45,300 nt of DNA from Eubacteriales bacterium (GCA_045129715.1 JBGVKA010000069.1:1-45300); one strand, 5' to 3'. Counted from the stretch's first letter, positions 2,999 through 37,620 are shown. The notes: generated by a model not told the origin, from the sequence alone. A program made the numbers and translations.

Positions 2999-5900
2999 TT
3001 AGTCTGCGGGATAAAGTGCGTTGTACTTAGCAAGAAGATCGTTGTAATAGAGGTCGTCGATGATAGCCTTATCCTCAGCGGAAAGGTTAGCGTAGATCTC
3101 TATAGCGTTCTCCATTGCGGTCTTGAAGGTTGCAAGGGACTCGGTATCCTCTGCGTCACGCTCGTAGAGAGAGTAATAGATCTCTGCATTGAAGAGATAG
3201 GAAATGATAGAGTCGTTTTCAAGAAGCTTGGTGAAGTGTCTCTCAAGCTCTGCGTAGAGAGCGAGATTACCCTGGAGCACGTAGAATGCGTACTTTTCAT
3301 CGGCAGAGAGTGCGCGAAGCTCTGCAAGAAGAGTGAGGATATCGTCACCCGTATACTCAACTCCGTTTGCCTCTGCGGTAAGAAGAGGAATAAGCTTGAT
3401 AAGAAGAGCCATTGCGTTCTCAACCTTAGCTGAGCTTATAAGCTCCTCGCTCGCGGAAAGAAGGCTTCTCGTGGAGAGCTGCATATAATACATATAGTCG
3501 TCGAGAAGTCCCTTAACGGGCTCTGCATCCTCGGTCACGGTGACGGAGAAGAGCTTGAAGTTAATTGCATTCATTATGCTCTCGTCGGTCTCGGCTACGG
3601 TGAGAATATCAGCGTAAATAAGCTTTGCCTTGTTGTAAAGAGCGATCATCGCGGTGCAAGCGATAGTGCGCTGAGTCTCGGAGTTCGAGCCGTCGGTAAC
3701 GATAGCGTAGAGCTCGTTGAACTGCTTGTAAATAGCCAAGATAGAATCGATCTTGTCGGATACGCTGCCAGGATCAAGAGTAGTCTGATCGGAGAACTTA
3801 TCAGCAGCATAGCGGTTGATAGACTCAAAGTAAGCAATGCTTGCGTTGATGGAGTAGAATGCGTGAAGCTTATCTTCATCAAGGCCGCGAACGATAGCGA
3901 TCATATCGTTTATATCTCCGTCATAAACGGTGCCGTTAAGCTCTGCCTCAAAGAGAGGGAGAAGAGCGATAAGGGTATCGCAAAGAGAGGTAACGTAATC
4001 GGTATGTCCTGCGGAAAGCATAGAGCTTGCAGTAACGTATTTAATAAAGTAGAAATACGAATCCACGGTGAACTTTACGACGGTAGGATGATCGGGATCG
4101 TTATCCGAAACCTCGTAGAGAAAGGCGCCGAGCGCATTTGCTACAGCCGAGCTGGTCTTAGCGATCTCGGTGATCTCGTTGTAGAGAACGGTAGCCTTGC
4201 TGTAAAGTCCCATAAGAGTGGGATATGCAGCCGCGAGCTTCATCTTTTCCGTGTCGTTCAACAAGGTGTTAAACTTATCGAGAACGTTGTAAAGTGCGTC
4301 AAACTTAGCCTTGATCTCCTCGGAGGGAGTAACGGTGCTCTGATCCAAGATCGCGGAATAGAGCTTGTTGTACTTGTCAAAGGCATTGCCTAAAAGTGCT
4401 CTGTAAGCGGTCTTTTCGGAGGCGGTAAGAGAGTTGAACTGCTCGTTAACGAGCCTCATGTAATTCTTGAAGTCGTTGAGAGCCGCCTCGTTGTACTGAG
4501 CTGTAGGATAGATCTCCATAGCCTGAATAAGATTAGCGAATGAAGCCTGCGCGTTATGAAGCGTTCCGTCGGTGTTCTTGGGAAGCTCACTGAGGAAGAA
4601 TCCGTACATGATCTGTGCGATCATCTTGCTGGGATTCTTATAATCAAAGATGAGTACTGCTCCGGCTACGTTGTGGTAGTTGTAGCAGATAGCGGAGAGG
4701 AACCAGTGAAGCTCGGTGGGAGTAAGATCGACCATAGCTTCGAAGAGGGCAAGAACTTTCGTTCTGTTTTCATTGTTCGATTCAAGGGTTCCCGTGGTTG
4801 CTATAACGTCCAAAACGTCATAGTATGCTTTCATTACGTTATCAACGTTTTTATTGTTCAAAACGGGTCCCAAGAAGTCGTAATAACCGAGAAGCTTCGA
4901 GGAGGGAGCGTTGAGATAAACGTTGATAAGCGTGTCAAGGTTCAACGCATTGTAAAGAGTTGTGTACAATTCGTTGCCGCTTGCCTTGATCTGCTTAGCA
5001 AGATCAAGAGCCTTGAGGTAGTAATAATGATAAGCGTAGAGATCAAAACCGGTTGCACTTCCCGTGCTCGTGTTTGTAAGCTGGTATGCGGTGTCGTATG
5101 CCAAATTGAAGGCGTTCTGGAAGTCCTCGAGGAGTCCCGGAGCCGGGATCTTGCCCCAAAGGTCTGTGGTAAGCTGATCCTTTCCGCCGTCCTTAGCGTA
5201 ATAGTAGTAAGAGTAAACGATGTCAAAGAAATCGCTTCTCCATCTTATTATAACTGCATAAAGAGATGCGTAACGGGATCCGGTGAATTCGCTGGAGCTG
5301 ATATCGAACACTGCCTTCACGATGTCCGCTCCGTAGGCTGAAGCGAATGCCGCAGCATCGGTCTTAAGATCTGTCTTCCAGGTAGTGGGAATGTCCTTGA
5401 GAAGATCGTAGATCGCGATCACGTGCTCAAGTCTCTTTGCTATTTCAAGAGCGGTCTCCTCTGTGTGAGGCGAGGTGAGCTGAGAGATCTTATAGTTTTC
5501 ATTGAAGCTCTCTTCACCGAACTCTTCCTTAATAGCACGCATAAGAGCCGCGCTTGCGTTATATGCAGACTTCGGATCGTTAAGTGCCGTAATAGCCTTA
5601 ACTACGTCCTCGTAGGTCTTTCCGACGTATGTAAGCTGTCCCTCTGCGGAAAGAATAAACGCGTTGCCGAGGTCCTTAACTGCCGCAACGTAGTCGTTAA
5701 TGTTAACGTAGAATGCCGCTACGCGAGCGAAATTAAGGATAAGATCGCTGTCTACCAAGCTCTGATCGGTGGTAGAAAGAGAGAAGTAACGCTCTATAGC
5801 CTCCTTTGCTGCCTCTCCGGCGCCTGCGGGAAGCTTGATATCGGCTATAGACTGGTTTTCACCGATCTCAAGGTTAACGTTTTCGATCTTACTTGCCAAG

Positions 5901-6781
5901 CTCTCTATAACGTATATGGGGCTGTAAAGAACGTCTACTGTGTAAGACCACTCGTTACCTGCATAGCGTACCGTGACGGTCTGAGTTACGGCGGTGTCCT
6001 TGTTTGCCTCTGTTATGGAGTCGGGATCGTAGCCGCTTACCATATCATTGGTGATATTGATGGACTTTTTGAAGGTGGAGGGCTTAGCTGCCTCAAGATA
6101 GAGATATCCGCCGGAGAAATTAAGGGTTTTCTCGTGGCTTAAATAATCGTCCTTGTTGGGCTGCTTGAAATCGATTTTTGCGGGGGCATAGAGGGTAACG
6201 GGGAAGCTGCACTCGTAGGTGTTAGCTCCGTTTGTATACTGAATGGTTACGTTTGTAGTACCTGCCTGAGTGTTGTTGAAGCTCTTGATTTTGATCAAGG
6301 AGCTCTTCATATCAACGTAGGTGGTGGTACCGTCGTCCTTAGCTACCTTTACTCTGCCCTTTTCCTTGTTGAAGCTTTCGTAGGTAAAGTACTCGGTATC
6401 AACGTTTTCAACGGTCATTCTTGCGATAACCGCTACGGTAAGAGTAGTGGTCTTACCCTCAAAGGAAACGCTGAGAGTCTGGTTTCCGAGAGTGTACTTG
6501 TCATATCCGGTAACGCTTATGCGAGGATCGTTCAAGGGGACCCTCGTCTTCTCATCGTTCTTGGAGACGGTGAGAGCACCGGTTGAAAAATCGAGATCCT
6601 GACCTTCTACGTAAACGAGTCTCGGCTGGAGTGATTTTTCAATGTAGATCTCGGTGGAGGAGGAGCCGCTGTCGTCTCCTCCGTCACCTTTCTTATTCTT
6701 ACATCCGGTAAAGGACGTAATACAAACCATTACAAGCACTAAAATCGATAATACCGTGAATCTTAATTTTCTGTTATTCAT
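2999..6781 (-). CDS. large surface lipoprotein: three Ig-like beta domains followed by about 970 aa of all-helical repeats; function unknown
   Basis: 1260-aa ORF. Signal peptide with lipobox SFTG|C. Residues about 45-290 form three bacterial Ig-like modules (for example LVYVEGQDLDFSTGALTV...TLSVSFEGKTTTLTVAV). The rest is helix-rich and has no motif I can assign. It lies 51 nt downstream of the LRR gene with no terminator between them. Confidence 0.85.
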   Translation of the reverse strand: MNNRKLRFTVLSILVLVMVCITSFTGCKNKKGDGGDDSGSSSTEIYIEKSLQPRLVYVEGQDLDFSTGALTVSKNDEKTRVPLNDPRISVTGYDKYTLGNQTLSVSFEGKTTTLTVAVIARMTVENVDTEYFTYESFNKEKGRVKVAKDDGTTTYVDMKSSLIKIKSFNNTQAGTTNVTIQYTNGANTYECSFPVTLYAPAKIDFKQPNKDDYLSHEKTLNFSGGYLYLEAAKPSTFKKSINITNDMVSGYDPDSITEANKDTAVTQTVTVRYAGNEWSYTVDVLYSPIYVIESLASKIENVNLEIGENQSIADIKLPAGAGEAAKEAIERYFSLSTTDQSLVDSDLILNFARVAAFYVNINDYVAAVKDLGNAFILSAEGQLTYVGKTYEDVVKAITALNDPKSAYNASAALMRAIKEEFGEESFNENYKISQLTSPHTEETALEIAKRLEHVIAIYDLLKDIPTTWKTDLKTDAAAFASAYGADIVKAVFDISSSEFTGSRYASLYAVIIRWRSDFFDIVYSYYYYAKDGGKDQLTTDLWGKIPAPGLLEDFQNAFNLAYDTAYQLTNTSTGSATGFDLYAYHYYYLKALDLAKQIKASGNELYTTLYNALNLDTLINVYLNAPSSKLLGYYDFLGPVLNNKNVDNVMKAYYDVLDVIATTGTLESNNENRTKVLALFEAMVDLTPTELHWFLSAICYNYHNVAGAVLIFDYKNPSKMIAQIMYGFFLSELPKNTDGTLHNAQASFANLIQAMEIYPTAQYNEAALNDFKNYMRLVNEQFNSLTASEKTAYRALLGNAFDKYNKLYSAILDQSTVTPSEEIKAKFDALYNVLDKFNTLLNDTEKMKLAAAYPTLMGLYSKATVLYNEITEIAKTSSAVANALGAFLYEVSDNDPDHPTVVKFTVDSYFYFIKYVTASSMLSAGHTDYVTSLCDTLIALLPLFEAELNGTVYDGDINDMIAIVRGLDEDKLHAFYSINASIAYFESINRYAADKFSDQTTLDPGSVSDKIDSILAIYKQFNELYAIVTDGSNSETQRTIACTAMIALYNKAKLIYADILTVAETDESIMNAINFKLFSVTVTEDAEPVKGLLDDYMYYMQLSTRSLLSASEELISSAKVENAMALLIKLIPLLTAEANGVEYTGDDILTLLAELRALSADEKYAFYVLQGNLALYAELERHFTKLLENDSIISYLFNAEIYYSLYERDAEDTESLATFKTAMENAIEIYANLSAEDKAIIDDLYYNDLLAKYNALYPAD
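3221..4306 (-). repeat. internal tandem duplication (about 171 aa + about 178 aa) inside the helical region of the 1260-aa lipoprotein
   Basis: Residues 826-996 and 1010-1187 align by eye. MGLYSKATVLYNEITEIAKT matches IALYNKAKLIYADILTVAET, and LIALLPLFEAELNGTVYDGDINDMIAIVRGLDEDKLHAFY matches LIKLIPLLTAEANGVEYTGDDILTLLAELRALSADEKYAFY. Confidence 0.75.
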
Positions 6782-6832
6782 TTGTTTATCCTATCTTAGT
6801 AATAGTCATCCGAATCTATAATAGAATTTCTA

Positions 6833-9805
6833 TTAAGCTTCGGGAGTGTTTTGAGTCCAAACGGCGTAGATAGTAGTACCGCTCGGGATCTCTGCCAATT
6901 GAGACGCGCTGTAAACGACCGTGCTTGCTTCGGCATCGGTATCCCAGCCTGCGAAGGTATATCCTTCTCTTTCGGGAGCAAGAGTTGCGTTGGGGGAGGA
7001 AAGGTTATCGTCAAGATCCTTGCCCTTAGTGAACGAAACTACGTACGTTTTGTCATCGGAGAGCTCACAACCCCAAAGAACTGCACGGTAAGAGGAATTC
7101 CAACGGTTGTTCCAATAGGGATTGATGGTTTCGGGCTCTGCGAAGAACGTTGCGGAGTGCAGACCGTAGAAGGCGTGCTTACCGATGGTCTCGATGCTCG
7201 AGGGAAGAACTACGGAATCAACCATAGCGCAGCCCTTGAATGCATAGTCGCCGATATTCTTAACGCTCTTAGAGAACACGATGGTCTTAACACCGGCGCA
7301 GCCGTAGAAGGCGTATTTTCCGATGTTGGTGAGCTTATCTCCCATAACGATACTGTCAAGGGAAGCGCAGTCCTTAAATGCGTAATTGCCTATGGACTCG
7401 ATGTTGTGAGAAATAACGAGAGTCTTGAGGTTTTCACACTTGTAGAAGGTGTAATTCAAGATGTTGAGAGTCTTGTTGGGATTGCTTTCATCTGTGCTGA
7501 ATACGATCGTTTCAAGCTTGGTGCAGTTGTAGAACGCGCGCTCTCCGAGGTACTCGAGCGATGCGGGAAGGATTACTTCCTTGATACCCGAGCAGGAGTG
7601 GAAGGCTCTGTCACCTATATACTTGATCCTTGATCCGTTAGCGAAGATAACGGGGCCCTTAAGGGAGGGAAGGCCGTTTTTGAAGTCCTCGATGCTGCCC
7701 CAGATCTCACCGCTGTCTCCAAGGTTGGAGCAGCCGTAGAAGGCGTAAGGACCGATGTATTCAACGCTTGCAGGGAACTTAACACCAATGAGAGCCGTGC
7801 ACTGATAGAATGCCGAGCGTCCGATGTGCTTAAGTCCTGTAGGAAGCTGAACTACTCCGCGCTCTTCCTTGTTAGCGAAGAAATATGCGCTCATACATCC
7901 GTAGAATGCGTAGTCGTCAATATACTCAAGGCTTGCGGCACCGCCGACACCGCCCATCATATAGAGATTATAGAACGCACCGCGTCCGATGTACTTGATA
8001 GAGTTGGGAAGCCAAATTCCGCCGCCCATAAATACTGCGTTCTGGAATGCGTAGTTTCCGATAGCCTCGATAACGGTGGTGTTGTCGGAGGGGTTAACGT
8101 CGGGAACGTCTACCTGGCTCATATACATACCGCCCTGTCTGAAGCCAACCACCCAGGAGTCGAAGCAAACGACGGGAGCCGCTGCAGTTGCCTTCTGGAA
8201 GGGAATGGTTCCGTAGAATGCGTTTCCACCGAGATAGCTCAAGGTGGGATAAGCGGGAAGCTGAATTCCCTTGTCCTCAAGCTTTACACAGTTCTCAAAT
8301 GCGGAGTTACCGATCTTCTGAACGATGAGGGTGGTGTATCTGTCGAAGTTATTGAGCATGGGGCATTCATAGAATGCGTAGTCGTTGATGATGAGAATGG
8401 ATTCACAGTCGTCAAACTTTTCGAGGATCTCGCAGTAAGCGAAAGCAGCGGTACCAACGTACTTAACGCCGGTAAGTCTTGCCGTCTTAAGCTTCTTGCA
8501 GCTCTGGAATGCGTTGTCGGCAACACCGACAGTGCCTTCCTTGAGGTTGTTAGCGTTAAGAGCGGTGAGATCTCTGTTAACTGCCTCGATAAGCCAATTG
8601 CCGAGATAGAAGATCTCTGCCTTTACAGGCTCAAGCTCCTCGCCGTCCTTTGCTGTGAGCGAGGGATCAACGATCTTGCCGTGAGCTACCTGATGAGGAA
8701 TAGTGCCGTAGAATGCGTAGATGCCTATCTCGGTCAAGCCCGTTCCGAGCGTGATCGTCGAAAGAGCCTTACACTGAAGAAACGCCTCGGTGCCGATGGA
8801 GGTGACGCTGTTCGGTATAACGAGAGTCTTAAGGGCCTCGCATCCCGTGAACGCGCCGGTTCCTATCGTCTTAAGGCTGTTTCCGAGATTAAGGGTAGTA
8901 AGTCCCTTACAGGAATAGAATGCATAGTTGGAAATGGATTCCATACCGTTTCCGATAGTTACGTTAGCGAGCTTCTGACAGTTTGTGAATGCGTACTCAC
9001 CGATAGTCTTAACGGAATCGGGAATAACGATGGTCTCAAGCTCAGCACACTCTGCAAATGCGTTATCCGCAATGCTTTCAACCTTATTTCCGATAGTTAC
9101 GTTCTTAAGCGCAACGCACCAAGAGAACGTTGAAGGAGCTATAGCGGTAACCTGATTGGGAATATTAACGGTAGTGAGCTTCTTGCAGCTCTGGAAAGCA
9201 AATTCACCGATAGTGGTAACGCTTTCGGGAACGGTAACGCTCGTAAGCTCGGAGCATTTAGCGAACGCGTTCTTACCGATAGTCTTTACGTTTTTTCCGA
9301 TAACCACGCTGGTTATCTTCTTGTTGTTGGAGAACGCCTTGTCGGCAATCTTGGTAACGGGCTTTCCGCGGTAAACGTCTTCAATAACGATGTCACCGAA
9401 GGCGGTACCCGATCCCACAACCTCGTACTCGGTCTTGTTGTTGATAAGATTGAACTTGAGTCCGCTCTCTGCCACTCTTTTGAACTCAAATTTTGCCCAT
9501 TCGGAGCTTTCGAGCTCGGAGCTAAAGTTAAGAGCTCTTACCTCGATAACGTAGTCACCGGGCTTGAGGTATTCAAGCGAATAGCTGGGAGATTTGACCG
9601 TTCTTATTCTGTCGTCTCCTGTAATTCTGAGCTCGTATCCGCGCGCGTCGGTGATGGGGTTCCACTGAAGAACGAGAGTGTCGGAGTTGAGCTTGAACTT
9701 GGAGGGAGCCTTAGTAATAACAGGCTCCTCCTTGCAAGCGGTAAGTGATACTGCCAAAAGGAGTATCAAGGAAATCGATAATATCAAGAATATTAATTTT
9801 TTCAT
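6833..9805 (-). CDS. BspA-type leucine-rich-repeat (LRR_5) surface lipoprotein with an N-terminal Fn3-like domain and a C-terminal Listeria-Bacteroides repeat (Flg_new)
   Basis: 990-aa ORF. Lipobox SLTA|C. Fn3-like segment LVLQWNPITDARGYELRI. Dozens of repeats fit the pattern IG..AF..C..L..V.IP.SV..IG. The C-terminus PEREGYTFAGWDTD...TIYAVW is a Flg_new motif. RBS AAGGAG; the gene starts 11 nt after the upstream stop. Confidence 0.9.
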   Translation of the reverse strand: MKKLIFLILSISLILLLAVSLTACKEEPVITKAPSKFKLNSDTLVLQWNPITDARGYELRITGDDRIRTVKSPSYSLEYLKPGDYVIEVRALNFSSELESSEWAKFEFKRVAESGLKFNLINNKTEYEVVGSGTAFGDIVIEDVYRGKPVTKIADKAFSNNKKITSVVIGKNVKTIGKNAFAKCSELTSVTVPESVTTIGEFAFQSCKKLTTVNIPNQVTAIAPSTFSWCVALKNVTIGNKVESIADNAFAECAELETIVIPDSVKTIGEYAFTNCQKLANVTIGNGMESISNYAFYSCKGLTTLNLGNSLKTIGTGAFTGCEALKTLVIPNSVTSIGTEAFLQCKALSTITLGTGLTEIGIYAFYGTIPHQVAHGKIVDPSLTAKDGEELEPVKAEIFYLGNWLIEAVNRDLTALNANNLKEGTVGVADNAFQSCKKLKTARLTGVKYVGTAAFAYCEILEKFDDCESILIINDYAFYECPMLNNFDRYTTLIVQKIGNSAFENCVKLEDKGIQLPAYPTLSYLGGNAFYGTIPFQKATAAAPVVCFDSWVVGFRQGGMYMSQVDVPDVNPSDNTTVIEAIGNYAFQNAVFMGGGIWLPNSIKYIGRGAFYNLYMMGGVGGAASLEYIDDYAFYGCMSAYFFANKEERGVVQLPTGLKHIGRSAFYQCTALIGVKFPASVEYIGPYAFYGCSNLGDSGEIWGSIEDFKNGLPSLKGPVIFANGSRIKYIGDRAFHSCSGIKEVILPASLEYLGERAFYNCTKLETIVFSTDESNPNKTLNILNYTFYKCENLKTLVISHNIESIGNYAFKDCASLDSIVMGDKLTNIGKYAFYGCAGVKTIVFSKSVKNIGDYAFKGCAMVDSVVLPSSIETIGKHAFYGLHSATFFAEPETINPYWNNRWNSSYRAVLWGCELSDDKTYVVSFTKGKDLDDNLSSPNATLAPEREGYTFAGWDTDAEASTVVYSASQLAEIPSGTTIYAVWTQNTPEA

Positions 9806-9816
9806 TTTCTACTCCT

Positions 9817-12606
9817 TTACTTAGCGGTGTTTGCCATATTCTTCTTTGCCTTTTTATCACGAATGATCTCGTGGATCCACTTCCACTTGAACTTACGAAC
9901 GGCAATGTCAAGAAGGAAGAAGCAAAGGATTATGATAAGGAATACGATGAGAGGATTGATTATCTTGTGCATATACTGAGATGCAGCCTCATAGATCTGG
10001 TAGGGATTGTCGATCAAGGAACCGTGTCCGTTCTCGGCAATGCTTACTATGAGAGCGGCAGCCGCCTCGTCATCGTAGAACATATCGTACTCCTTGGAGT
10101 ACGCAATGGATTTGTAAATTCTCTTTTCGGAAACTACCTGACCTACTACGTTCTTCTTCTGAGCGAGAATTTCGTGAACACCGGGGGTGATGAGGTCGAA
10201 GTAGAACTTGGAGTAATTTTCATCAATGCCTGCGGTAAATTTCTGAACGTTGGACGAAGCTATTCCGTCAACGGAGGGGCTGGTAACGGTGATCTCAACG
10301 TACTCACCGTCCTGAAGCTCGGTGTATACGTTAAGCTGAGTCTTGTAGTTGTCGCCCTCGAAATCTGCGTCGATAGCCTCAACGCGAATGTTTTCCTCGG
10401 GCATAAGACCGTTAACGATATTCGTGAGGATGGCGTTACCCTCGGGAGTGTCAATAAACTGACTCGACCAAGCTCCGCTAAGGTCACAGCCAAACGTACC
10501 TACCTTACCCTTACCGTAGGTCCACTGAGTATAGATGGGGGTGAACTCACCCTTAAGAAGAACCTGAAGATTCTTAGTAAGATCGTTGTTATCACCGTCG
10601 GCGTCCTTAGCCTTCATACCGTAGAAGCCATCAAGGTAGGGCATATCCTCCTGCTTGATGTGCTCGACACCGTTGCCAAGGTTGATCTTGGTGATATCAC
10701 TTGTAGCACCGATCTGGATCTGGAACTCCTCGTGGTTGAAATCGGTGATCTCGGGAGCACCCATATCGTCTCTTACGGCATCCGGAACGGAGTCGTTCTG
10801 CCATACGTTGTGGAAGTTGGTCTCCTTAACGCCAGCAAACTCTACAAGGAGCTGCTTCATAAGAGATTCGGCGGTACCGGTACACTGAATACCGATAATA
10901 GAGGTGGTAATTCCCTCTGCGGCGTTATCAAGGAGGACCTCCTTGGTAAGATCTACGTTTGAGGGATCGGGCTCACCGTCCGTGATAACGATGATGTGCT
11001 TTTTCTCAACGTTTGTCTGTGCCTTAAGAGTTTTACCTGCAGCGGCAAGAGCGGTCGAGAATACGGTTCCGCCTCCGTCCTTACCGATGTTCTGGATCGT
11101 ATTAAGAACCTTAGCTCTTTCGGTTGCGGGAGTAAGCTCGAGAGCCTCCTCGCCGTAATCGTCGAGCTCGTATACACCGATGTAGTCACGCTCGGAAAGA
11201 AGGTCGAGACAAGCTCTTGCACCCTGCAAAGCGTAGTAAAGCTTACTGTGCTCAAAGTCTGCATCGAGGTCTTCGGAGTACATGGATCCCGATTTATCTA
11301 TAAGGATCATTACTGCAACGGGGGGAGTGAAGTTGATAACGTCAACGGGGAGAAGCTTTTTGAGATACTGGGAGGGCTTAAGGTCCTCCTTGGTAAATGC
11401 GTTGGGAGTTTCACCGTCAGTCTCGTTACCGCAAACGGTGAAAAGACCGCCGCCGACTTCACTTACGTAGTCGTAAAGGATCTTTTCAAAGCCCTCGGGC
11501 ATCTGACCGTAGGAGACGTTGCAAAGGATAACCTGGTCGTAAAGACGGATGTTGTCAAGAGACGAGGGAACGTTGTTGGTGTCGTCGATATTGACCGTGG
11601 TTATATCGAAATCAACGCCAAGCATTCTCTCGATCGCCGCACTCTCACCGTCGATGCTCTCGAGAATGAGGATCTTGTTGAACGATTCAACGAGAATGTA
11701 CGAGTGGAAGGTGTTATTAAGTTCTAACGTGTCGTTGTTGCTTGTAAGCTCAAATGACAATGTGTGAAGATTGTTGGGATTGGGCTTGTCGAAGGTAAGA
11801 GGGATCTTAACCGTTTGAATACCTCTTATAAATTCAACGTCCATTTCGCCGCAAAGGGTTCCGTCGTTATAAACCTTGAGCGTTCCTTCGCCGGCATAGG
11901 AGCTCTCAAGAGTGAGCTCTACAGTGAATTCCTCGGCAAACTTTATCTTGGTATCGGGACGGGTCATATTGATGATCTGAACCTCGTCGCCGCGCTTACC
12001 GTCGGTGAAATCGACGGTGTCAACCTTTATGCCCTGAGAAGCGACGGTCTTGATCGCGTTATAAGCGTTACCGTCGGTCTCTATCGCGTCGGACATAAGA
12101 ACGATTCTACCGTTCTTGGGATCGGAGAAGAGCCCTGCCGTATACTTGAGAGCCGCCTCTATATCGGTTGCCGTAGTGTTCGGCATTTCGGACGACATAT
12201 ACTTCGAATACGCGTTCTTCATATCGCTCGTAAGCTTGAGCGAGTACACCTGGTCGTAACCGAAGGTTACTATACCAAGCTTGAACGTGCCGTTTTCGTT
12301 TGCTCTCATAACGCTTTGGATAAAGGAGTCCTTTTCATCTTCTAACTTACTGCCGCTGTACGATGAGTCAACGAGAAGGATTACCTCGTTTTCATCGTTC
12401 GGCAGGTCGTATTCAAAGGTTATTCCCGCAAGAAGGGAAATAGCCAGAGTCATAATGATCAAATGTAGCACCATCGAAACGATACGGTTTCTGGTACCGC
12501 GATACCTTTTGTTCATACGGAAGTACGGAATAAACGTAAGTGCGACCGCAGGTATCAGCAGCAAAAGAAGCCAAGAGTTCGAAAATTTAATACTAAAGTT
12601 TGTCAT
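9817..12606 (-). CDS. BatB-like membrane protein: BatA_N double-TM, vWA, class-I glutamine-amidotransferase-like domain, second vWA, C-terminal TM
   Basis: 929-aa ORF. The N-terminus SWLLLLLIPAVALTFIPYFRMNKRYRG...LHLIIMTLAISLL is BatA_N-like. MIDAS motifs are LLVDSSYSGS and ILIDKSGSM. The block KILILESIDGE...YDQVILCNV...GGGLFTVCG is GATase1-like. The C-terminal TM is PLIVFLIIILCFFLLDIAV, followed by a Lys-rich tail. Confidence 0.85.
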   Translation of the reverse strand: MTNFSIKFSNSWLLLLLIPAVALTFIPYFRMNKRYRGTRNRIVSMVLHLIIMTLAISLLAGITFEYDLPNDENEVILLVDSSYSGSKLEDEKDSFIQSVMRANENGTFKLGIVTFGYDQVYSLKLTSDMKNAYSKYMSSEMPNTTATDIEAALKYTAGLFSDPKNGRIVLMSDAIETDGNAYNAIKTVASQGIKVDTVDFTDGKRGDEVQIINMTRPDTKIKFAEEFTVELTLESSYAGEGTLKVYNDGTLCGEMDVEFIRGIQTVKIPLTFDKPNPNNLHTLSFELTSNNDTLELNNTFHSYILVESFNKILILESIDGESAAIERMLGVDFDITTVNIDDTNNVPSSLDNIRLYDQVILCNVSYGQMPEGFEKILYDYVSEVGGGLFTVCGNETDGETPNAFTKEDLKPSQYLKKLLPVDVINFTPPVAVMILIDKSGSMYSEDLDADFEHSKLYYALQGARACLDLLSERDYIGVYELDDYGEEALELTPATERAKVLNTIQNIGKDGGGTVFSTALAAAGKTLKAQTNVEKKHIIVITDGEPDPSNVDLTKEVLLDNAAEGITTSIIGIQCTGTAESLMKQLLVEFAGVKETNFHNVWQNDSVPDAVRDDMGAPEITDFNHEEFQIQIGATSDITKINLGNGVEHIKQEDMPYLDGFYGMKAKDADGDNNDLTKNLQVLLKGEFTPIYTQWTYGKGKVGTFGCDLSGAWSSQFIDTPEGNAILTNIVNGLMPEENIRVEAIDADFEGDNYKTQLNVYTELQDGEYVEITVTSPSVDGIASSNVQKFTAGIDENYSKFYFDLITPGVHEILAQKKNVVGQVVSEKRIYKSIAYSKEYDMFYDDEAAAALIVSIAENGHGSLIDNPYQIYEAASQYMHKIINPLIVFLIIILCFFLLDIAVRKFKWKWIHEIIRDKKAKKNMANTAK

Positions 12607-12621
12607 CTTTTACTTTCCTAA

Positions 12622-14661
12622 CTAATATTGCTCGCGGGTGTGAAGCCACCATTCAGCGAATAGCAGCGTAACCAACGCTATGGCAAAATATAATAAAATA
12701 TCGGTATTTATAATTTCCTCGTTTTCGGGAACAACCATAAACTGAGGATTTTCAAGAACGTCAACCGTTGCAACGATATTGCTCTCGCTGTCGGGGATCT
12801 TGACGTAGAAGAGCTCGGTAACCGGGTCACCGTTAAGATCGTACTGCGTAACGGAATACATACCGGGAACGGTAACGGTGAGGTTTTCCGGGAAGACGGT
12901 AAGAACCTTGGTGATTCCGTCAGGAGTAACAACGGTAAGATCTTCGCCTCTGGAGTTAAGCTGTACACTTTGATTTACATCATAGATGTAATTCGTTATA
13001 GTCGAGGGCATATAGTACTCGAGAATGTTGTACATCATAAGAGGGAAGTCTATAACGATGGGAAGGTTGGAGTAGTTAAGGCTGAAGGGCATTAAAACTA
13101 CCTTCGATCCCAGCTCGCTTCTATCGGTCGCATAAACCACGGGCTCCATTCCGCAATAAAGAAGGGGAAGATAGCTTGCATCGGGGTTCATGATCTCGGT
13201 ATACTTGGTGATACCTATCTCGTCGGGAGTGAGGTTCTTGATTATGGGGTGATCTTCCTCTTTGGAGAAATAGGTGAGCTCCTTAAGATATTTCTCGGAA
13301 CCGAGCTTGAAGCCGGCGCCGTTGATATCGTAGAGGGGATCGGAAAGTATGGATATACCGTCCTCGGGAAGAATTTCGGGCATAAATCTTTCATAGATAT
13401 AGATGTCGTAGCCCTCGGTGGGGATCACCTGGTCCTTCATATCGGGGATAACTATAAATTCCTTAAACTGAATGTCCCAACGGTACTTGAGCTTTTCACG
13501 AATGATACGGAAAGCGGTGGAGAAGTAGTTGTTGGGGTTGTCACTTACGTAAAGGATGTTGAGGGGGAGCTTTTCTCCGCCAACGAGATTGAAAGTGTCG
13601 TCAATGGAGAAGGCGTCGTCTTCCTCAACTCTTGCGGTAACGGTGCTATAGGAAACGGTCTCGAAGAGGTAAGGACATTCGCTTTCGTATGTCTCGCTGT
13701 ATTCTGCCTCAGTAGAGAAATCGTCCTTGCTGAAGCCGGGAATGTAGAGAGTGGTGATCTCTCCGTCACGAAGATTTTCGGATACTGAGATCTCGAAGCT
13801 CGTGGGAGTAAGACCGTCAATAATACCGTCAAGCTCGTCCTCGTATTCGTCCTCGGTGTTCTTCTTACCTTCTACTATGGCGTAAACGGTAACGTTTCTG
13901 TTCTGACCGTAGCAAACTACGTCTACCTCAAGGGTATATCTGTTGTCGAACTTGGTCATACGTGCGTCAAGCACGGCAACGTTGAAGTCGAGATCACCGT
14001 TAACGTTCTTTACGGTTACGTTACCGGCATCCGTATAATTCGTATCGGTGTAAAGAATAACCTCAACGTCGGGAGTGAATGCAGTAAGCTTTTCTGCCTT
14101 CTTCATAGCTCCCTCAATATCCGCATCGCCGTAAGTGCAAGCTTGATTGTTGGCAGCTGCCTCTTTGAGCTTCGTCAACGCCTCGGTGATATCACCCTTG
14201 GTGAAGGCGGTAGCCTGCTGAACGAGGAAGTCCGCGTTGTCGTGAGCAAGGATTATTGAAACCTCGCTGTCTTCAAGCTTAAGCGTGCTCTCGACCTCCT
14301 CCTCGATCGCAAGGAGAGCTCTGTCAAAACGAGTCTCGTCAAGACCGACCTTTGCCATCATTGATGCGGAAGCATCGATAATAAATACCTTCTTGCTCGT
14401 GGTCTTTTCTTCCTCCTCAGCAAAATAGGGCTGAGCGAGCATAAAGGAGGTGATGATTATTATCAGGATCTGGCAAAGAAGAAGTAAGATGTTTCTGAGC
14501 TTGCTAAGCGGTATCTTATTCTTTTTGTATTTTAAGCTTAATTTCCAAACGAAAGTACTGGAAATGATTTTATTTTGGTAATTGGGCTTTATGATGTAGA
14601 TAATGATCAGCGCGATCAATCCCGTAAGGCCCAAAAAACCAAGGGGTGTCAACCAACTCAT
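12622..14661 (-). CDS. BatA-like membrane protein: BatA_N double-TM plus vWA domain, C-terminal TM
   Basis: 679-aa ORF. N-terminus reads MSWLTPLGFLGLTGLIALIIIYIIKP...LLLLCQILIIIITSFMLAQPYF. MIDAS motif is FIIDASASM. C-terminal TM is ILLYFAIALVTLLFAEWWL. The start overlaps the DUF58 stop by 4 nt. Confidence 0.88.
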   Translation of the reverse strand: MSWLTPLGFLGLTGLIALIIIYIIKPNYQNKIISSTFVWKLSLKYKKNKIPLSKLRNILLLLCQILIIIITSFMLAQPYFAEEEEKTTSKKVFIIDASASMMAKVGLDETRFDRALLAIEEEVESTLKLEDSEVSIILAHDNADFLVQQATAFTKGDITEALTKLKEAAANNQACTYGDADIEGAMKKAEKLTAFTPDVEVILYTDTNYTDAGNVTVKNVNGDLDFNVAVLDARMTKFDNRYTLEVDVVCYGQNRNVTVYAIVEGKKNTEDEYEDELDGIIDGLTPTSFEISVSENLRDGEITTLYIPGFSKDDFSTEAEYSETYESECPYLFETVSYSTVTARVEEDDAFSIDDTFNLVGGEKLPLNILYVSDNPNNYFSTAFRIIREKLKYRWDIQFKEFIVIPDMKDQVIPTEGYDIYIYERFMPEILPEDGISILSDPLYDINGAGFKLGSEKYLKELTYFSKEEDHPIIKNLTPDEIGITKYTEIMNPDASYLPLLYCGMEPVVYATDRSELGSKVVLMPFSLNYSNLPIVIDFPLMMYNILEYYMPSTITNYIYDVNQSVQLNSRGEDLTVVTPDGITKVLTVFPENLTVTVPGMYSVTQYDLNGDPVTELFYVKIPDSESNIVATVDVLENPQFMVVPENEEIINTDILLYFAIALVTLLFAEWWLHTREQY

Positions 14662-15557
14662 GCCATTATTCCTACCTTCAGTAATTCTTTGAACAGCATT
14701 TTTTCAAGGGGATACTCGGTGCTTACTGAAACAAAGTCCGCTCCGCGCGAATTACAGAAGGAGCGAATGTCTGCCTTGAGGTCGCGAAGCGCCTCGTCAT
14801 AGGCGAGCTGATTGGCACGGCTGATCTTTATACGCATATTCTTGGGATCCTCCATTCCCATAGCCTCGGTGTCGATAAGGTTAACACGTCCGCTGTAGGA
14901 GGGATCGGTCTCATCGGGAGTCATTACCTGAATGAGAAGAACCTGCTTTTTCTTGTAGCAAAGATAATCTATTGCTTTTTTCCAGTCGCTGCCTGTGAAG
15001 AAATCGGAAATAATAACCGTAAGACCGTCGTTAGATCCTAAGTTGGGGCAAGAGGTGATGCACTTATAAATATCCGTTTCTCCGTTAAATTCAAGCTCCT
15101 CGAGGCTGCTGATAGCATCGAAGAAGGCTCTTTTACCGACGATGGTTCCGTGAGGATCCTCCGTCTTGTTTTCCTTCATAAGCTTGAATGAAACCTTGTC
15201 CATATTGTGAACCGAGAGATAGCCGAGAGCCGCGGCAACACCTATCGTGTAATTTGCCTTAGCGGGCATATCTCTACCCATTGATGCCGAGCAGTCTATA
15301 AAGATCTGCGTATGCATTTGTCTTTCGTCTGTAAATAACTTAAGGAAGAATTTTTCAAAACGGCTGTATAAATTCCAGTCTATTCTACGAATGTCGTCAC
15401 CGAGCATATACTCGCGGTAGTCTGCAAATTCAACGGTCTGACCGTAAGTACGAACGAGGTGCTTACCGCCGAAGAATCCGCCGAGATTGGCGCGAAGCTC
15501 GAGTGAGAGCGTTTCAAGACGACTGAAAAATTCATCGTTTAAAACTGAACCTTTCAT
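14658..15557 (-). CDS. DUF58 domain protein (MoxR-associated, vWA-like fold)
   Basis: 299-aa ORF with the ..FADYREYMLGDDIRRIDWNLYSRFEKFFLKLFTDE.. signature of DUF58. Its ATG overlaps the MoxR stop by 1 nt (TAATG). Confidence 0.9.
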   Translation of the reverse strand: MKGSVLNDEFFSRLETLSLELRANLGGFFGGKHLVRTYGQTVEFADYREYMLGDDIRRIDWNLYSRFEKFFLKLFTDERQMHTQIFIDCSASMGRDMPAKANYTIGVAAALGYLSVHNMDKVSFKLMKENKTEDPHGTIVGKRAFFDAISSLEELEFNGETDIYKCITSCPNLGSNDGLTVIISDFFTGSDWKKAIDYLCYKKKQVLLIQVMTPDETDPSYSGRVNLIDTEAMGMEDPKNMRIKISRANQLAYDEALRDLKADIRSFCNSRGADFVSVSTEYPLEKMLFKELLKVGIMA

Positions 15558-16672
15558 TATTTTCTCCTAAAGAACTTGAGTTTTTTGTTTTCTGTGTTTT
15601 CGGTCTCCTCGGCGGTAGCCTCAACGGTGGTTGCATTCTCAACTACCTCGTCGATGGTAACGTCAACCGTCTTAGCTTTTGCGAGATTGTGCTTCTGCAT
15701 CATTTCTTCAACGATCATATTTACGATATCGTCAGCGGTGATTCTCTCAGCTGCAGCCTCGAAGGTGAGCTTGATTCTGTGACGGAGAACGGGAAGAGCG
15801 AGCTCGTTTACGTCGCTGTAGGAAACGTTGTATCTGCCGTTCATAAGTGCCTTAACCTTAGCGGCGGAGATAAGAGCCTGACCTGCACGGGGAGAAGCAC
15901 CGAGACGAACGTACTTCTTAGCGGTCTCGGAAGCGCAGTCGCTGTCGGGATGAGTAGCGGAGCAAAGCATCATCGCGTACTTCATAACGTCGGTAGCAAC
16001 GGGAATAGCGTTTGCGGTCTTACGCATCTCAAGAAGCTGCTCAGCGTTACAAGCAACGTCAGCAACCTCCGCCATGGTTTTCTGAGTCATATTAACGATG
16101 TCCATAAGCTCGTCAAGAGAAGGGTTCTTAACGATGATCTTGAACATGAAACGGTCCATCTGCGCCTCGGGAAGAGGATAGGTACCGTCCTGCTCGATGG
16201 GGTTCTGAGTAGCAAGAACGAAGAAGGGCTCGTTGAGCTTTCTGGAAACACCCATTACGGTAACGGTGTGCTCCTGCATCGCCTCGAGAAGAGCCGACTG
16301 AGTCTTGGGGGTAGCACGGTTAATTTCGTCCGCGAGAATGATGTTGGAGAAGATGGGACCGGGCTGGAACTCGAAGGAGGAGTTTCCGTTCTCATCCTTT
16401 ACGATGATGTTAGTACCGGTAACGTCTGCGGGCATAAGGTCGGGGGTGAACTGAATTCTCGAGAAGGGAAGGTTGAAAACTCTTCCGAGAGAACGTACGA
16501 GACGGGTCTTACCAACTCCGGGAACACCCTCAAGAAGTACGTTACCGCCTGCGATCATAGCTATAACCGCACCCTCGATAACCTCTTTCTGACCGATAAC
16601 GTCTCTACCGATCTGAGTAAATATGTTTTTGCACTGTTCACTGAACTGTTTAAGATTCTGTTCGTTTATCAT
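15557..16672 (-). CDS. MoxR-family AAA+ ATPase (AAA_3)
   Basis: 371-aa ORF reading VIGQKEVIEGAVIAMIAGGNVLLEGVPGVGKT (Walker A), ILADEINRA (Walker B) and LEAMQE...VLATQNP. It has an acidic C-terminal extension of about 45 aa beyond a typical MoxR. Confidence 0.93.
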   Translation of the reverse strand: MINEQNLKQFSEQCKNIFTQIGRDVIGQKEVIEGAVIAMIAGGNVLLEGVPGVGKTRLVRSLGRVFNLPFSRIQFTPDLMPADVTGTNIIVKDENGNSSFEFQPGPIFSNIILADEINRATPKTQSALLEAMQEHTVTVMGVSRKLNEPFFVLATQNPIEQDGTYPLPEAQMDRFMFKIIVKNPSLDELMDIVNMTQKTMAEVADVACNAEQLLEMRKTANAIPVATDVMKYAMMLCSATHPDSDCASETAKKYVRLGASPRAGQALISAAKVKALMNGRYNVSYSDVNELALPVLRHRIKLTFEAAAERITADDIVNMIVEEMMQKHNLAKAKTVDVTIDEVVENATTVEATAEETENTENKKLKFFRRK

Positions 16673-16724
16673 GAGTTTTTCCTCTCTAATAATCTAATAA
16701 TTGAAAATGAAAATAGATGAATGT

Positions 16725-17852
16725 TTAAACGATTCCGAGGTAGGATTCGATGATGTATCTTTCCTCTTCGGAGAGATTGCTGCCTTCTTTTTCAAGGCGC
16801 TCGCGGAGCTTATCGTAGTATGAAACACCGTCCTCGGTATCTCCGCTGAGAGCATTTTTGTAATAGGTCTGACCGTCTATTACCTGGTTAGCCTCTTTGT
16901 ACTGAGATCCGCCGTTATTGGAAGGCTGGCTGGGATCCTGCTCCTGAGGCTTCTGCTGCTGATCCTGGTTTTCCTGCTGATCCTGGTTTTCCTGATTTTC
17001 CTGCTGATCCTGATTCTCCTGCTGCTGATCAGACTGCTGAGGTCTGTCGTTAGGCTTATCGGAGGGATCTGCGTTGGGATCCTGTTCGCTGGGATCACCG
17101 TCTTCACCGGTCTGTGCGAAAACAGCAATAAAAACTACGTCCTCGGTGATGTTCTTGTCGGAACGGCCGGGCTTTTTGTAGCCGTCTTCCCACTCAAGAA
17201 ATTCCCATCCCTCGTCTGCAACTGCGACGATCTCTGCGGATGCGGTGCCTCTCGGGATAAGCTGGAATTCTTCACCGTAGATGTATCCGCCGCCCTCACA
17301 TTCGTAGGTTACGGATACGTAATCGATCTTAGGCTCGTCGTCCTCGTCGTCCTCGATAAAGGTATCGCCTCCGGGGAGAACTCCGGTCACCGCAAGAACC
17401 TCAAGGGTGTTTGCCACGGTGAAGAGTGAGCCTGCAACGATCAAAAGAACGAGTGACGCTGTGGAAAGCGTGAATTTTACTGCGTTCAAAGCGAGCTTTG
17501 CAAGATTGAGCTTTGCATCCTCGCGCTGTACCTGTGCTATGTAAGAGTCGTCGTTTTCGTACTCAACCATCGTTACGAGTCTTTCCTCGAGTCCGAGACG
17601 GTCAAGTCTTCTTGCGTTCTTAATTACGTCGGGACGGAACTTCAAGAAATAGAATATGGGTGTGCATACGGCAGTTACACCGAGAGCACCGAAAATAGAC
17701 AAGAAAAGTCCGTTGAACGCCAAGAACCAAGTTACGAGAGCCGAAGCGGCTCCTGTGAAAAGACCAACGTTCAAGCTGAGGATAAATGCGCCGAGCCAAG
17801 CCTCTAATCTTAACTTTTTGTAGTGCCTTTCGAAATACTTTTTTCTGTTCAT
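16725..17852 (-). CDS. 3-TM membrane protein with an extracytoplasmic Flg_new-like domain, a Q/E/N/D low-complexity linker and a short C-terminal helical motif; first gene of the MoxR operon
   Basis: 375-aa ORF. The basic N-terminus and two TMs (about 19-70) are followed by a charged loop of about 55 aa and a third TM (about 128-150). Then comes YVSVTYECEGGGYIYGEEFQLIP...ADEGWEFLEWEDG...VFIAVF (Flg_new pattern), the QQENQDQQENQENQDQQENQDQQ linker, and a C-terminus ending LSEEERYIIESYLGIV. Confidence 0.8.
   Translation of the reverse strand: MNRKKYFERHYKKLRLEAWLGAFILSLNVGLFTGAASALVTWFLAFNGLFLSIFGALGVTAVCTPIFYFLKFRPDVIKNARRLDRLGLEERLVTMVEYENDDSYIAQVQREDAKLNLAKLALNAVKFTLSTASLVLLIVAGSLFTVANTLEVLAVTGVLPGGDTFIEDDEDDEPKIDYVSVTYECEGGGYIYGEEFQLIPRGTASAEIVAVADEGWEFLEWEDGYKKPGRSDKNITEDVVFIAVFAQTGEDGDPSEQDPNADPSDKPNDRPQQSDQQQENQDQQENQENQDQQENQDQQQKPQEQDPSQPSNNGGSQYKEANQVIDGQTYYKNALSGDTEDGVSYYDKLRERLEKEGSNLSEEERYIIESYLGIV
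16954..17040 (-). repeat. imperfect 18-nt (with one 9-nt half unit) in-frame tandem repeat encoding (E/Q)NQDQQ units
   Basis: The plus strand reads ctgctgatcctggttttc twice (16957-16992), then ctgattttc, then ctgctgatcctgattctc, then ctgctgctgatc.... Confidence 0.85.
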
Positions 17853-18171
17853 TTTTTGTTTTCCTTTCCGAACGGGTTTCGCCGTTCATTATTATTCTGC
17901 GATATACAGAACAGCGCTGACGCCTTTGGCATCTCCACGCGGTCAATGTTTTCATTATTGCAATCGAACGTAGTCGTATGGAGCCGATAAACTCTTGCCT
18001 TTCGGCTTCATTCGGCTAATCAAGCAAAAATAATACAAACTGACTTAAGACTTATTGGTGTTCGACCTTGCAAGAACAGTCCCCGAAAAGCAATTTTTTA
18101 TTCTATATTATATTTAATAACAATGTAAATAAAAATTTGCATTTTTGTGAGTTTATACTATTCTTGCTTGG

Positions 18172-18209
18172 TTAGTCGCGGCAAGCTTTGGTAGCTTTGC
18201 CTCGACTAA
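18172..18209 (-). other. second long imperfect hairpin downstream of the giant gene (function unassigned)
   Basis: TTAGTCGCGGCAAGCT (18172-18187) pairs with AGCTTTGCCTCGACTAA (18193-18209) across a 5-nt loop, with one mismatch and one bulge. Confidence 0.3.
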
Positions 18210-18241
18210 GCTGTTGTTGACGTATTAATGAAAACATTCTT

Positions 18242-18273
18242 CTCGGCAGCGAGGCAAATGCCCCGCTGCCGAG
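18242..18273 (-). terminator. stem-loop terminator of the 3304-aa gene
   Basis: CTCGGCAGCG (18242-18251) pairs with CGCTGCCGAG (18264-18273), a 10-bp GC-rich stem 86 nt after the stop. The trailing U-tract on the minus strand is weak (GAAGAAUGUUUU). Confidence 0.55.
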
Positions 18274-18358
18274 TCTTTACTTAAAACTTACGAATTGAAG
18301 ATCAATCTGTAAGTGCGAAATAAAGCTGGGTTTTTGCTTAAAATCCGAAGATCAAGAA

Positions 18359-35548: not shown

Positions 35549-35582
35549 TTATTGTCATTTTAAAGTGTAAAAAAGAAATTCT

Positions 35583-35602
35583 GCTGTATCATACAGCTTT
35601 TT
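35583..35602 (+). terminator. weak hairpin plus T5 between the oxidoreductase genes and the dehydrogenase (possible attenuator or partial terminator)
   Basis: GCTGTAT-c-ATACAGC followed by TTTTT. The stem is short and AT-rich. Confidence 0.3.
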
Positions 35603-35617
35603 AAAGGAGAAAATACA

Positions 35618-36649
35618 ATGAACGCAATGACAGAAATGAGCAAATACCGTCACGAGAAGGTATTGTTCGTAAACAATGAAAAGGCTGGTCTTAAGGCTAT
35701 TATCGCCGTACATAACACCAACCTCGGCCCCGCTATCGGCGGATGCCGTCTCTTCCCCTATGCATCTTACGACGACGCACTCTTCGACGTTCTCCGTCTT
35801 TCTCGCGGAATGTCTCACAAGAACGCAGTTGCAGGCCTTCCCCACGGTGGCGGAAAGGGTGTAATCATCGCTGATCCCTCCCAGAAGACCGAGGCAATGT
35901 TCGAGGCATTCGCTGAGGCGGTAAACGGTCTTGGCGGAGACTATATCACCGCAGAGGACGTGAACACCACCTGTGACGATGCTCTCGTTATGCTTCGCAA
36001 GACAAAATATCTCTGCGGACTTCCCCAGAACAGCGGAGACCCCTCGCCCTTCACCGCTCGCGGCGTATGGCAGGGAATCAAGGCTACCGCTAAGGTTGCT
36101 CTCGGAGCAGATTCTCTCGACGGACTTACCGTTGCGGTACAGGGACTCGGTAAGGTTGGTTACGACCTCTGCCGTCTTCTTCACAACAGCGGTGCAAAGC
36201 TTATCGTTGCTAACCGCAGCAACAAGGAGATCGCTCTCCGTGCAGCTGAGGAGTTCGGTGCTATCGTAGTTCCCACCGAGGAGATCTACAGCCAGAAGTG
36301 TGATATCTTCTCTCCCAACGCAATGGGTGCTATCATCAATCCCACCACTATTCCTATGCTCAACTGTAAGGCGGTTGCAGGCGGATCCAACAACCAGATC
36401 CTTGACGATGAGTCCGGTCTCGCTCTTAAGGCTCGCGGCATCTTCTACGCTCCCGATTTCGTAATCAACGGCGGCGGCGTTATCAACGCGGCAGCAGAGG
36501 TTGACGGTCCTTACAACAAGGAAGAGGTTCTCAAGAAGGTTGACAACATCTATAACTCCATCGAGCACATTCTCACCGAGTCCAAGGCTACCGGCGAGCC
36601 CGAGGGTGTTATCGCAACCAGATACGCTGAGTCTCTCATCTATCGTTAA
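35618..36649 (+). CDS. Leu/Val(/Phe)-type amino-acid dehydrogenase (Glu/Leu/Phe/Val dehydrogenase family)
   Basis: 343 aa. GLKAIIAVHNTNLGPAIGGCRLFPY...ALFDVLRLSRGMSHKNAVAGLPHGGGKGVI closely parallels Bacillus leucine dehydrogenase, including the catalytic-Lys GGGK motif and the GxGxVG Rossmann motif (VQGLGKVG). Confidence 0.9.
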   Translation: MNAMTEMSKYRHEKVLFVNNEKAGLKAIIAVHNTNLGPAIGGCRLFPYASYDDALFDVLRLSRGMSHKNAVAGLPHGGGKGVIIADPSQKTEAMFEAFAEAVNGLGGDYITAEDVNTTCDDALVMLRKTKYLCGLPQNSGDPSPFTARGVWQGIKATAKVALGADSLDGLTVAVQGLGKVGYDLCRLLHNSGAKLIVANRSNKEIALRAAEEFGAIVVPTEEIYSQKCDIFSPNAMGAIINPTTIPMLNCKAVAGGSNNQILDDESGLALKARGIFYAPDFVINGGGVINAAAEVDGPYNKEEVLKKVDNIYNSIEHILTESKATGEPEGVIATRYAESLIYR

Positions 36650-37616: not shown

Positions 37617-37620
37617 AGCT

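Follow-up and report, generated by a model that had tools for sequence, protein, structure and literature searches.

Which proteins does a MoxR-DUF58-vWA module act upon? Modules of this kind, also called 'Bat', are widespread and have been tied to stress tolerance and virulence since 1999, and to our knowledge no client or mechanism has been described for them. The question is raised in a concrete form by a stretch of 45,300 nucleotides from an Eubacteriales bacterium (GCA_045129715.1, JBGVKA010000069.1:1-45300; the whole stretch is referred to as the window), in which seven consecutive minus-strand open reading frames (ORFs) at 2999-17852 encode a MoxR-DUF58-vWA core together with a further membrane protein and two large lipoproteins, one of them dominated by leucine-rich repeats (LRR). 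A giant LRR lipoprotein gene lies immediately upstream. The operon is real and conserved, and it has apparently not been described before. We consider it probable that its genes encode one functional unit, and the prospects are about even that this unit is a single membrane-spanning surface assembly, in which MoxR and DUF58 inside the cell act on a scaffold of three membrane proteins that holds or switches the LRR lipoproteins. The genes are listed below.

18359-28273, minus strand: g0, giant LRR lipoprotein, 3304 aa, upstream neighbour
16725-17852, minus strand: g1, membrane protein, 375 aa
15557-16672, minus strand: g2, MoxR, 371 aa
14658-15557, minus strand: g3, DUF58, 299 aa
12622-14661, minus strand: g4, BatA_N-vWA protein, 679 aa
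9817-12606, minus strand: g5, double-vWA protein, 929 aa
6833-9805, minus strand: g6, LRR_5 lipoprotein, 990 aa
2999-6781, minus strand: g7, Big_3/helical lipoprotein, 1260 aa

The gaps from g1 to g7 are 52, -1, -4, 15, 11 and 51 nt, g3 having an overlap of 1 nt with MoxR and of 4 nt with g4. The ORF calls thus agree with the seven same-strand genes and the spacing given in the original prediction, a reading of the window made from its sequence, and its domain assignments (MoxR, DUF58, vWA, LRR, Flg_new and Ig-like) likewise hold, apart from the points noted below.

Conservation of the gene block across gut Clostridia

Homologues of g5 number more than 1100, all of them from uncultured Clostridia. 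Two peptide patterns from g5, run against a single genome of each species, gave 47 loci from 41 species-level metagenome-assembled genomes (MAGs), and the six-frame ORFs of all loci were searched with the eight window proteins; the counts given here are for loci in which the contig reaches far enough. The carriers are uncultured MAGs whose labels include Oscillospiraceae, Ruminococcus sp., Christensenellaceae, Subdoligranulum sp. CAG:314, Eubacterium sp. CAG:180 and Bacillota, and the named isolation hosts are deer, sheep and water-buffalo gut, with one Hadza human sample.

The order that recurs in the 41 MAGs is giant LRR protein, g1, MoxR, DUF58, BatA_N-vWA, double-vWA, LRR_5 lipoprotein and Big_3/helical lipoprotein, and it holds down to 29 % g5 identity (loci L048 and L049). 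A g6-type LRR gene directly follows g5 in 44 of 47 loci and g7 follows g6 in 29 of 38, the nine loci lacking g7 being the most divergent ones. MoxR and DUF58 precede g4 in 24/26 loci, g1 precedes MoxR in all 21, and in 15 of 17 the distance from the end of a large LRR ORF to the g1 downstream of it is below 1.2 kb. This neighbourhood survey had been put forward as a check when the coupling was first proposed, and within the clade its outcome is strongly positive. The flanking genes of the window (GH77 and Exo_endo_phos) recur in the two nearest relatives only; the block is therefore conserved while its neighbourhood is not.

Spacing within the block is tightly kept. DUF58 and g4 overlap by 4 nt in 36 of 38 loci, and the median distances are 3 nt from MoxR to DUF58, 14 nt from g4 to g5, 15.5 nt from g5 to g6, 14 nt from g6 to g7 and 51 nt from g1 to MoxR, with 190 nt (85-798) from g0 to g1. 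Pairwise identity matrices are strongly correlated between vWA proteins and lipoproteins (r = 0.95 for g5/g6 and 0.91-0.92 for g4/g6, g5/g7 and g6/g7), which means that the LRR and helical lipoproteins share the divergence of the vWA proteins and were not shuffled in.

Reciprocal searches lead back to the same arrangement. Starting from g1, homologues at 34-39 % identity led to the block again in L054, L055 and L058; starting from g7, at 28-31 % identity, L061 and L062 were found to carry a g7 homologue directly after a g6-type LRR gene, preceded in L061 by a double-vWA gene. The g1 and g7 relatives examined for their context all lie in this operon. As a control, proteins sharing only the Big_3 part of g7 were found in unrelated contexts.

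The original prediction had coupled an AAA+/DUF58 module to vWA proteins and LRR lipoproteins. This coupling is supported at the genomic level because of the survey counts, the differing flanks, the short gaps that are kept and a natural fusion of ectodomains described below; it is, however, confined to one clade. The LRR linkage is a feature of that clade and not of Bat-like modules generally, where the frequency of LRR neighbours outside the clade is taken from the literature on Bat operons.

The cytoplasmic pair and the membrane proteins

By Pfam g2 is of MoxR type (AAA_3 at 207 bits, with AAA_lid_2), with an additional weak match to bpMoxR at 40.6 bits. Its Walker A (GVPGVGKT) and Walker B (ILADEINR) motifs are 100 % conserved among 27 orthologues. 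g3 matches DUF58 (PF01882) at 104 bits and carries an invariant DxSxS motif of the metal-ion-dependent adhesion site (MIDAS) type, with D, S and S each at 100 %. A sequence-based check found no transmembrane (TM) segment in either protein, and both are taken as cytoplasmic. They are by far the best conserved parts of the block, with mean pairwise identities of 81 % for MoxR and 71 % for DUF58.

The topology of g1, g4 and g5 was predicted from the pattern of TM segments and the positive-inside rule. In g1 a TM hairpin leads to a cytoplasmic segment and a third TM segment, after which come, on the outside, a beta domain of Flg_new_2 type, a disordered, acidic linker and, at the C-terminus, a module of three helices. 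The Flg_new_2 match (22.8 bits) falls slightly below the cut-off of 23.6; it is backed because homologues are annotated with PF18998 and because the AlphaFold model places a beta domain at residues 178-247. This model (predicted local distance difference test score, pLDDT, of 74.8) shows the cytoplasmic segment, conserved as ARRLDRLGLEERLVTM...QREDA, as three short helices, and a fold search with it gave no match at E <= 0.001. The g1 family comprises 288 relatives of uniform length and has no name.

g4 consists of a BatA_N double-TM hairpin, a MIDAS vWA domain, about 450 aa without a known domain and a C-terminal TM segment, so that its bulk is predicted to be extracytoplasmic. BatA_N (PF07584) and VWA_2 were found in 15 of 15 orthologues; the DxSxS residues are conserved at 95, 95 and 88 %, and a sequence search of the PDB returned nothing useful for this protein. 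The double-vWA protein g5 has a double-TM hairpin, two vWA domains each with MIDAS, a GATase1-like region (assigned from the annotation of g5 homologues), a C-terminal TM segment and a cytoplasmic tail. DxSxS conservation is 100, 95 and 79 % in vWA1 and 100 % in vWA2, and vWA1 matches the solved BatA/BatB structures 4jdu and 3ibs at E = 0.002-0.02. Pfam did not detect BatA_N at the g5 N-terminus; of the two BatA_N-vWA proteins claimed earlier, g4 is therefore one and g5 is not. A paralogy of g4 and g5 outside the vWA domain was considered and rejected, since no similarity was detectable there.

It was found that the best conserved stretches of all three proteins are cytoplasmic loops, tails and TM parts and not ectodomains. 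For g4 these are the N-terminal hairpin and its basic cytoplasmic loop, KPNYQ..SSTF.WKLSLKYKKKKIP.SKLRN, and for g5 the hairpin and loop, the C-terminal TM segment and the tail RKFKWKW..IIRD.

A natural fusion of ectodomains and satellite loci

The predicted topology can be compared with a fusion that occurs in nature. L004:10001-13918, in the same MAG as L007 (the window's 90 % relative), encodes a 1305-aa lipoprotein with an LSSC lipobox, which joins regions corresponding to g5 residues 71-879 (71 % identity), g4 residues 227-570 (71 %) and g1 residues 308-375 (57 %). All TM segments are missing and the pieces are exactly the segments predicted to be extracytoplasmic. An LRR_5 lipoprotein gene lies 41 nt upstream of the fusion gene, and MoxR and DUF58 genes are not nearby. 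Because it joins exactly the predicted g5, g4 and g1 ectodomains without their TM segments, the fusion supports both the predicted topology and a joint action of these ectodomains outside the cell with an LRR partner.

Satellite loci show other partial sets. L038 and L040 carry the giant LRR gene, g1, g4 and g5 without MoxR and DUF58, and the cytoplasmic motifs are kept, which fits a service in trans by MoxR and DUF58 encoded elsewhere, as judged from these motifs. L037 encodes a stand-alone g5-like lipoprotein. In RGIG5520 and RGIG3994 at least two block copies per MAG were found on separate contigs, some of them cut at contig ends; L015 with L033 and L024 with L041 are pairs of copies within one MAG.

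The surface lipoproteins

g0 has 15 LRR_5 stretches (968 bits), three Flg_new stretches and the lipobox LLTAC; its C-terminus is helical and variable, the last ~400 aa being poorly conserved. Its orthologues L054:748-9915 and L055:763-9867 begin with an uncleaved-looking TM anchor in place of the lipobox, and therefore the mode of anchoring of g0 differs among species.

g6 combines an fn3-like N-terminal domain, six LRR_5 stretches (475 bits) and a C-terminal Flg_new region behind the lipobox SLTAC, and its conservation is even and fairly high along its length, not hypervariable. Identification of g6 as the gliding protein Gli349 was rejected, the match being 70.6 bits against a cut-off of 1750.

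g7 consists of about 290 aa of Big_3/Ig-like domains, Big_3 being the only Pfam domain found, followed by a 970-aa all-helical domain; the lipobox is SFTGC. The helical domain was modelled as all-alpha at a pLDDT of 90.7 and a predicted template modelling score (pTM) of 0.76. Comparison with the PDB gave weak, generic alpha-solenoids such as karyopherins only (E >= 0.07, TM-score ~0.1), and a sequence search of the PDB with g7 a single Big_3 match. Among 1.84 billion proteins the helical domain occurs in 125 representative clusters and in one architecture, nearly all relatives measuring ~1040-1110 aa, with the helical part beginning at about residue 300. The window protein and its closest relatives (~1260-1280 aa) carry a ~200-aa insertion, absent from the ~1050-aa orthologues, which resembles a tandem duplication of the preceding helical module (window 3424-4024, g7 residues ~920-1120).

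Other large proteins were seen in the g7 slot of divergent loci: a Transglut_core membrane protein after the LRR gene at L039:15783-19022, Flg_new lipoproteins of 1687 aa at L040:11092-16152 and of at least 1222 aa, running off the contig, at L051:12309-15974, and an 1818-aa lipoprotein without a Pfam match at L046:10259-15712. A 2541-aa protein with Peptidase_S8 and LRR_5 stands next after g7 at L061:11123-18748.

Motif and Pfam searches found no LPXTG, SLH or CWB2 in the seven proteins, confirming an earlier impression gained by eye, and added the lipoboxes of g6, g7 and g0. A helical motif resembling LSEEERxIIExYLGIV had been thought common to the C-terminal parts of the surface proteins. 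It was dropped for g0, g1 and g7, as a hidden Markov model (HMM) of the g1 C-terminus gave E >= 0.01 outside g1, which is below significance.

Transcription signals and neighbouring features

The signals detected on the minus strand around the block are as follows.

2953-2920, minus strand: operon intrinsic terminator, 14-bp stem with T-rich tail (free energy -26, z -7.3)
17853-18095, minus strand: g1 leader of ~245 nt, candidate cis-regulatory RNA (minimum free energy -70.7, z -2.8)
18100-18129, minus strand: promoter-like site TTTACA-18-TAGAAT, 10/12 consensus matches
18242-18273, minus strand: likely terminator or attenuator of g0, perfect 14-bp hairpin followed by a weak U tract

The hairpin at 2953-2920 is the sole strong minus-strand terminator within the g1-g7 block, in line with the single convincing one reported before near 2922-2961. 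The remaining terminator-like matches have short stems and are intragenic, 13 being found against 16.5 expected in shuffled sequence.

The core had also been placed directly downstream of the 3304-aa LRR gene. This neighbour was confirmed, but a hairpin and a promoter-like site between g0 and g1 had been missed. The hairpin at 18273-18242 lies ~85 nt past the g0 stop (free energy -31.6 kcal/mol, z -6.9) and is kept in L001, as is the -35 hexamer of the promoter-like site at 18129-18100, an assignment that is a consensus match only. From these two elements it follows that g0 is probably transcribed separately, and that the operon proper would be g1-g7 with its own promoter and leader. The DNA of the leader is almost identical in L001, whose proteins share just 54-80 % identity. 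Rfam gave zero matches across the whole window, the g1 leader included. The g0-g1 intergenic region (17853-18358) holds a second strong hairpin at ~18211-18170.

Elsewhere in the window, four minus-strand ORFs of 270-337 aa at 35555-39654, with one weak DUF11 as their sole Pfam match, are unrelated to the block.

Comparison with known systems

The nearest likeness in gene order is the Bat operon of Bacteroides, with its relatives in Borrelia, Leptospira, Riemerella and Francisella, with which the operon shares the core order of MoxR, DUF58, BatA_N-vWA and a second vWA protein. The window has an intact MoxR, DUF58 directly after it, BatA_N with a MIDAS vWA in g4 and a second vWA protein in g5. 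MIDAS motifs are common to both, as are vWA domains facing away from the cytoplasm; in the BatA-type protein BB0173 the vWA domain lies outside the cytoplasmic membrane (PMC5700661). The differences are substantial. Bat operons have partners with tetratricopeptide repeats (TPR) or SH3 domains (BatC/D/E), whereas no TPR or SH3 family was found in the seven proteins at E <= 0.01 by Pfam, bearing out an absence noticed earlier. The Clostridia vWA proteins are 2-3 times larger, carrying additional domains and a TM anchor at the C-terminus. The operon also has fixed extras, namely the membrane protein g1, either one or two LRR_5 lipoproteins, and the Big_3/helical lipoprotein, and its host is monoderm.

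A MoxR/DUF58 pair is likewise present in the transglutaminase type, represented by YeaC-YeaD-YebA of B. subtilis and by the bifidobacterial PFNA cluster (pkb2-fn3-aaa-atp-duf58-tgm). The PFNA cluster ties MoxR/DUF58 to a large FN3 surface protein and a multi-TM ectodomain protein; of the published cases in which such a pair is bound to a large surface protein, it is the nearest (PMC8430577). The window operon lacks a transglutaminase or Ser/Thr kinase of PFNA type and has vWA membrane proteins and LRR_5 lipoproteins instead. Pfam found no Transglut_core among the window genes; it was seen in the divergent L039 only, where a transglutaminase-like membrane protein following the LRR gene is a hint of shared descent with the YebA/PFNA type.

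In NorQ/NorD, CbbQ/CbbO and RavA/ViaA an AAA+ ring and a MIDAS adaptor act on a specific client (PMC9976466, PMC13036017, PMC4660213), and MoxR/vWA pairs are known to remodel specific client complexes (PMC9976466, PMC13036017). The clients of these chaperone pairs are cytoplasmic or membrane enzymes, whereas the candidate clients in Clostridia are extracytoplasmic, so that any action would have to cross via the TM hairpins. MoxR1 is required for export of the cell-wall protein RipA (PMC4810496).

g6 and g0 resemble BspA-type proteins in being dominated by LRR_5. Against the NCBIfam model of HupY/LrrG (Streptococcus agalactiae) g6 scores 175.6 bits, far from the equivalog cut-off of 1250. HupY-type adhesins are LPXTG-anchored, whereas g6 and g0 are lipid-anchored; unlike the BspA-type and HupY proteins they occur in strict linkage with a MoxR/vWA operon, and they are well conserved and not hypervariable. 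Full-text literature searches found no paper linking MoxR/Bat modules with BspA-type LRR proteins, in agreement with the earlier view that the arrangement had not been described.

Proposed assembly and rival explanations

In the single assembly that we propose for these monoderm gut Clostridia, g1-g7 and the giant LRR neighbour would act together. Inside the cell, a hexamer of the AAA+ protein MoxR and DUF58, with its MIDAS-type motif, would dock on the conserved loops and tails of g1, g4 and g5. By analogy, since known MoxR rings pair with MIDAS adaptors, DUF58 would be the adaptor and these loops the grip sites. Outside, the ectodomains of g4 and g5, with three MIDAS vWA domains and the GATase1-like region, and that of g1 would build a scaffold to hold, arrange or switch g6 and g0, the LRR_5 proteins with a lipid anchor, and the Big_3/helical g7, presumably through contacts between vWA and LRR domains. 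ATP hydrolysis in the cytoplasm may power the building of the surface complex or switch its conformation. Information would then flow from inside to outside, with adhesion as a possible output. The proposal draws on the kept gene order and spacing, the reciprocal searches, the fusion of ectodomains, the co-divergence, the conserved Walker and MIDAS motifs, the conserved cytoplasmic segments and the precedents of BB0173, the MoxR/vWA pairs and MoxR1.

Several observations weigh against this proposal. MoxR and DUF58 have no TM segment and their docking site is guessed from conservation alone; the docking motif thought to be shared by g0, g1 and g7 is unsupported by the HMM search; and the most divergent loci have other large lipoproteins or a transglutaminase-like protein in place of g7, so that not all 'clients' are fixed. 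The even conservation of g6 is at least as compatible with a structural subunit as with a classical adhesin that binds the host. Bat-like modules elsewhere, moreover, show stress and not adhesion phenotypes (PMC11834572), although adhesion and invasion assays formed part of that study and its moxR mutant was less pathogenic.

The genes might instead be neighbours for reasons of regulation: g1-g5 would be a Bat-like envelope or stress module, and g0, g6 and g7 surface genes that are co-regulated with it, physically independent and adjacent because the same gut conditions call for both. Bat operons elsewhere do give stress, aerotolerance or envelope phenotypes without LRR partners (PMC5700661, PMC11834572), g7 is replaceable, and both a terminator of g0 and a separate promoter of the operon seem to be present. 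Yet gaps of 11-16 nt between g5, g6 and g7 are kept across ~40 species, the identities co-diverge at r = 0.95, an LRR gene adjoins even the fusion locus that lacks MoxR, and the g7 helical domain is found in one architecture, with all examined g1 and g7 relatives in the operon; we therefore regard mere co-regulation as unlikely, although it is the strongest of the rivals. Slightly less probable still is an outside-in sensor, in which the LRR, vWA and Big_3 ectodomains would together serve as a receptor for a ligand from host, diet or cell contact and pass the signal through DUF58 and MoxR to a cytoplasmic target. Conservation that is strongest in cytoplasmic loops and tails would suit such a role, the PFNA cluster has been read as a host-signal system (PMC8430577) and a sensing role was suggested by the authors of the BB0173 study (PMC5700661). 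Domain searches of the block, however, found neither a kinase nor a transcription factor nor any other output domain, three very large lipoproteins would be an unusual outlay for a receptor, and those MoxR proteins whose role is known serve as chaperones in assembly or maturation.

A surface machine that generates force for gliding or for cycles of adhesion and release, with giant LRR 'legs' and energy from MoxR, would recall Mycoplasma mobile and the Myxococcus protein CglB, a vWA lipoprotein adhesin of a gliding machine (PMC9946355), and giant surface proteins are here indeed paired with an internal ATPase. The g6 match to the Gli349 model, far under its cut-off, probably reflects shared repeat content, however; homologues of known gliding motors are absent and no mechanical coupling through the membrane is known for a MoxR ring and its DUF58 adaptor, which makes this explanation very improbable. 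Least credible of all is a conflict or defence system of MoxR-vWA type. MoxR-vWA ternary conflict systems exist (PMC7159879) and MoxR gives the weak bpMoxR match, but its 40.6 bits are far exceeded by the 207 bits of AAA_3, Pfam found neither a beta-propeller nor an effector domain, PADLOC returned weak generic AAA matches only, and the block is vertically co-inherited and not mobile. Assignment of the operon to the MoxR-vWA-beta-propeller conflict systems was accordingly rejected.

Implications

By its fixed linkage the Clostridia operon provides the Bat module with its first concrete candidate clients, in the form of large extracytoplasmic partners, and the natural fusion shows which ectodomains belong together. 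The question of function is thereby turned into testable binary interactions, between the vWA MIDAS and an LRR lipoprotein on the outside and between DUF58/MoxR and the cytoplasmic loops on the inside. Two protein families without a name are also defined, that of g1 and that of the g7 helical domain.

A wider view would be that Bat-type modules in general use ATP to control surface-protein complexes from the 'inside out', in the manner of integrins; the AAA+ ring and DUF58 would pull on the conserved loops of BatA_N hairpins and so toggle extracellular MIDAS between binding and release of surface proteins. We regard this generalization as unlikely; if it were true, the Clostridia operon would be the first such module caught with its clients, and would represent a new kind of Gram-positive surface organelle for regulated adhesion. 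For the organisms themselves, the surface structure may matter for the attachment of abundant uncultured gut Clostridia to hosts, to particles and to each other.

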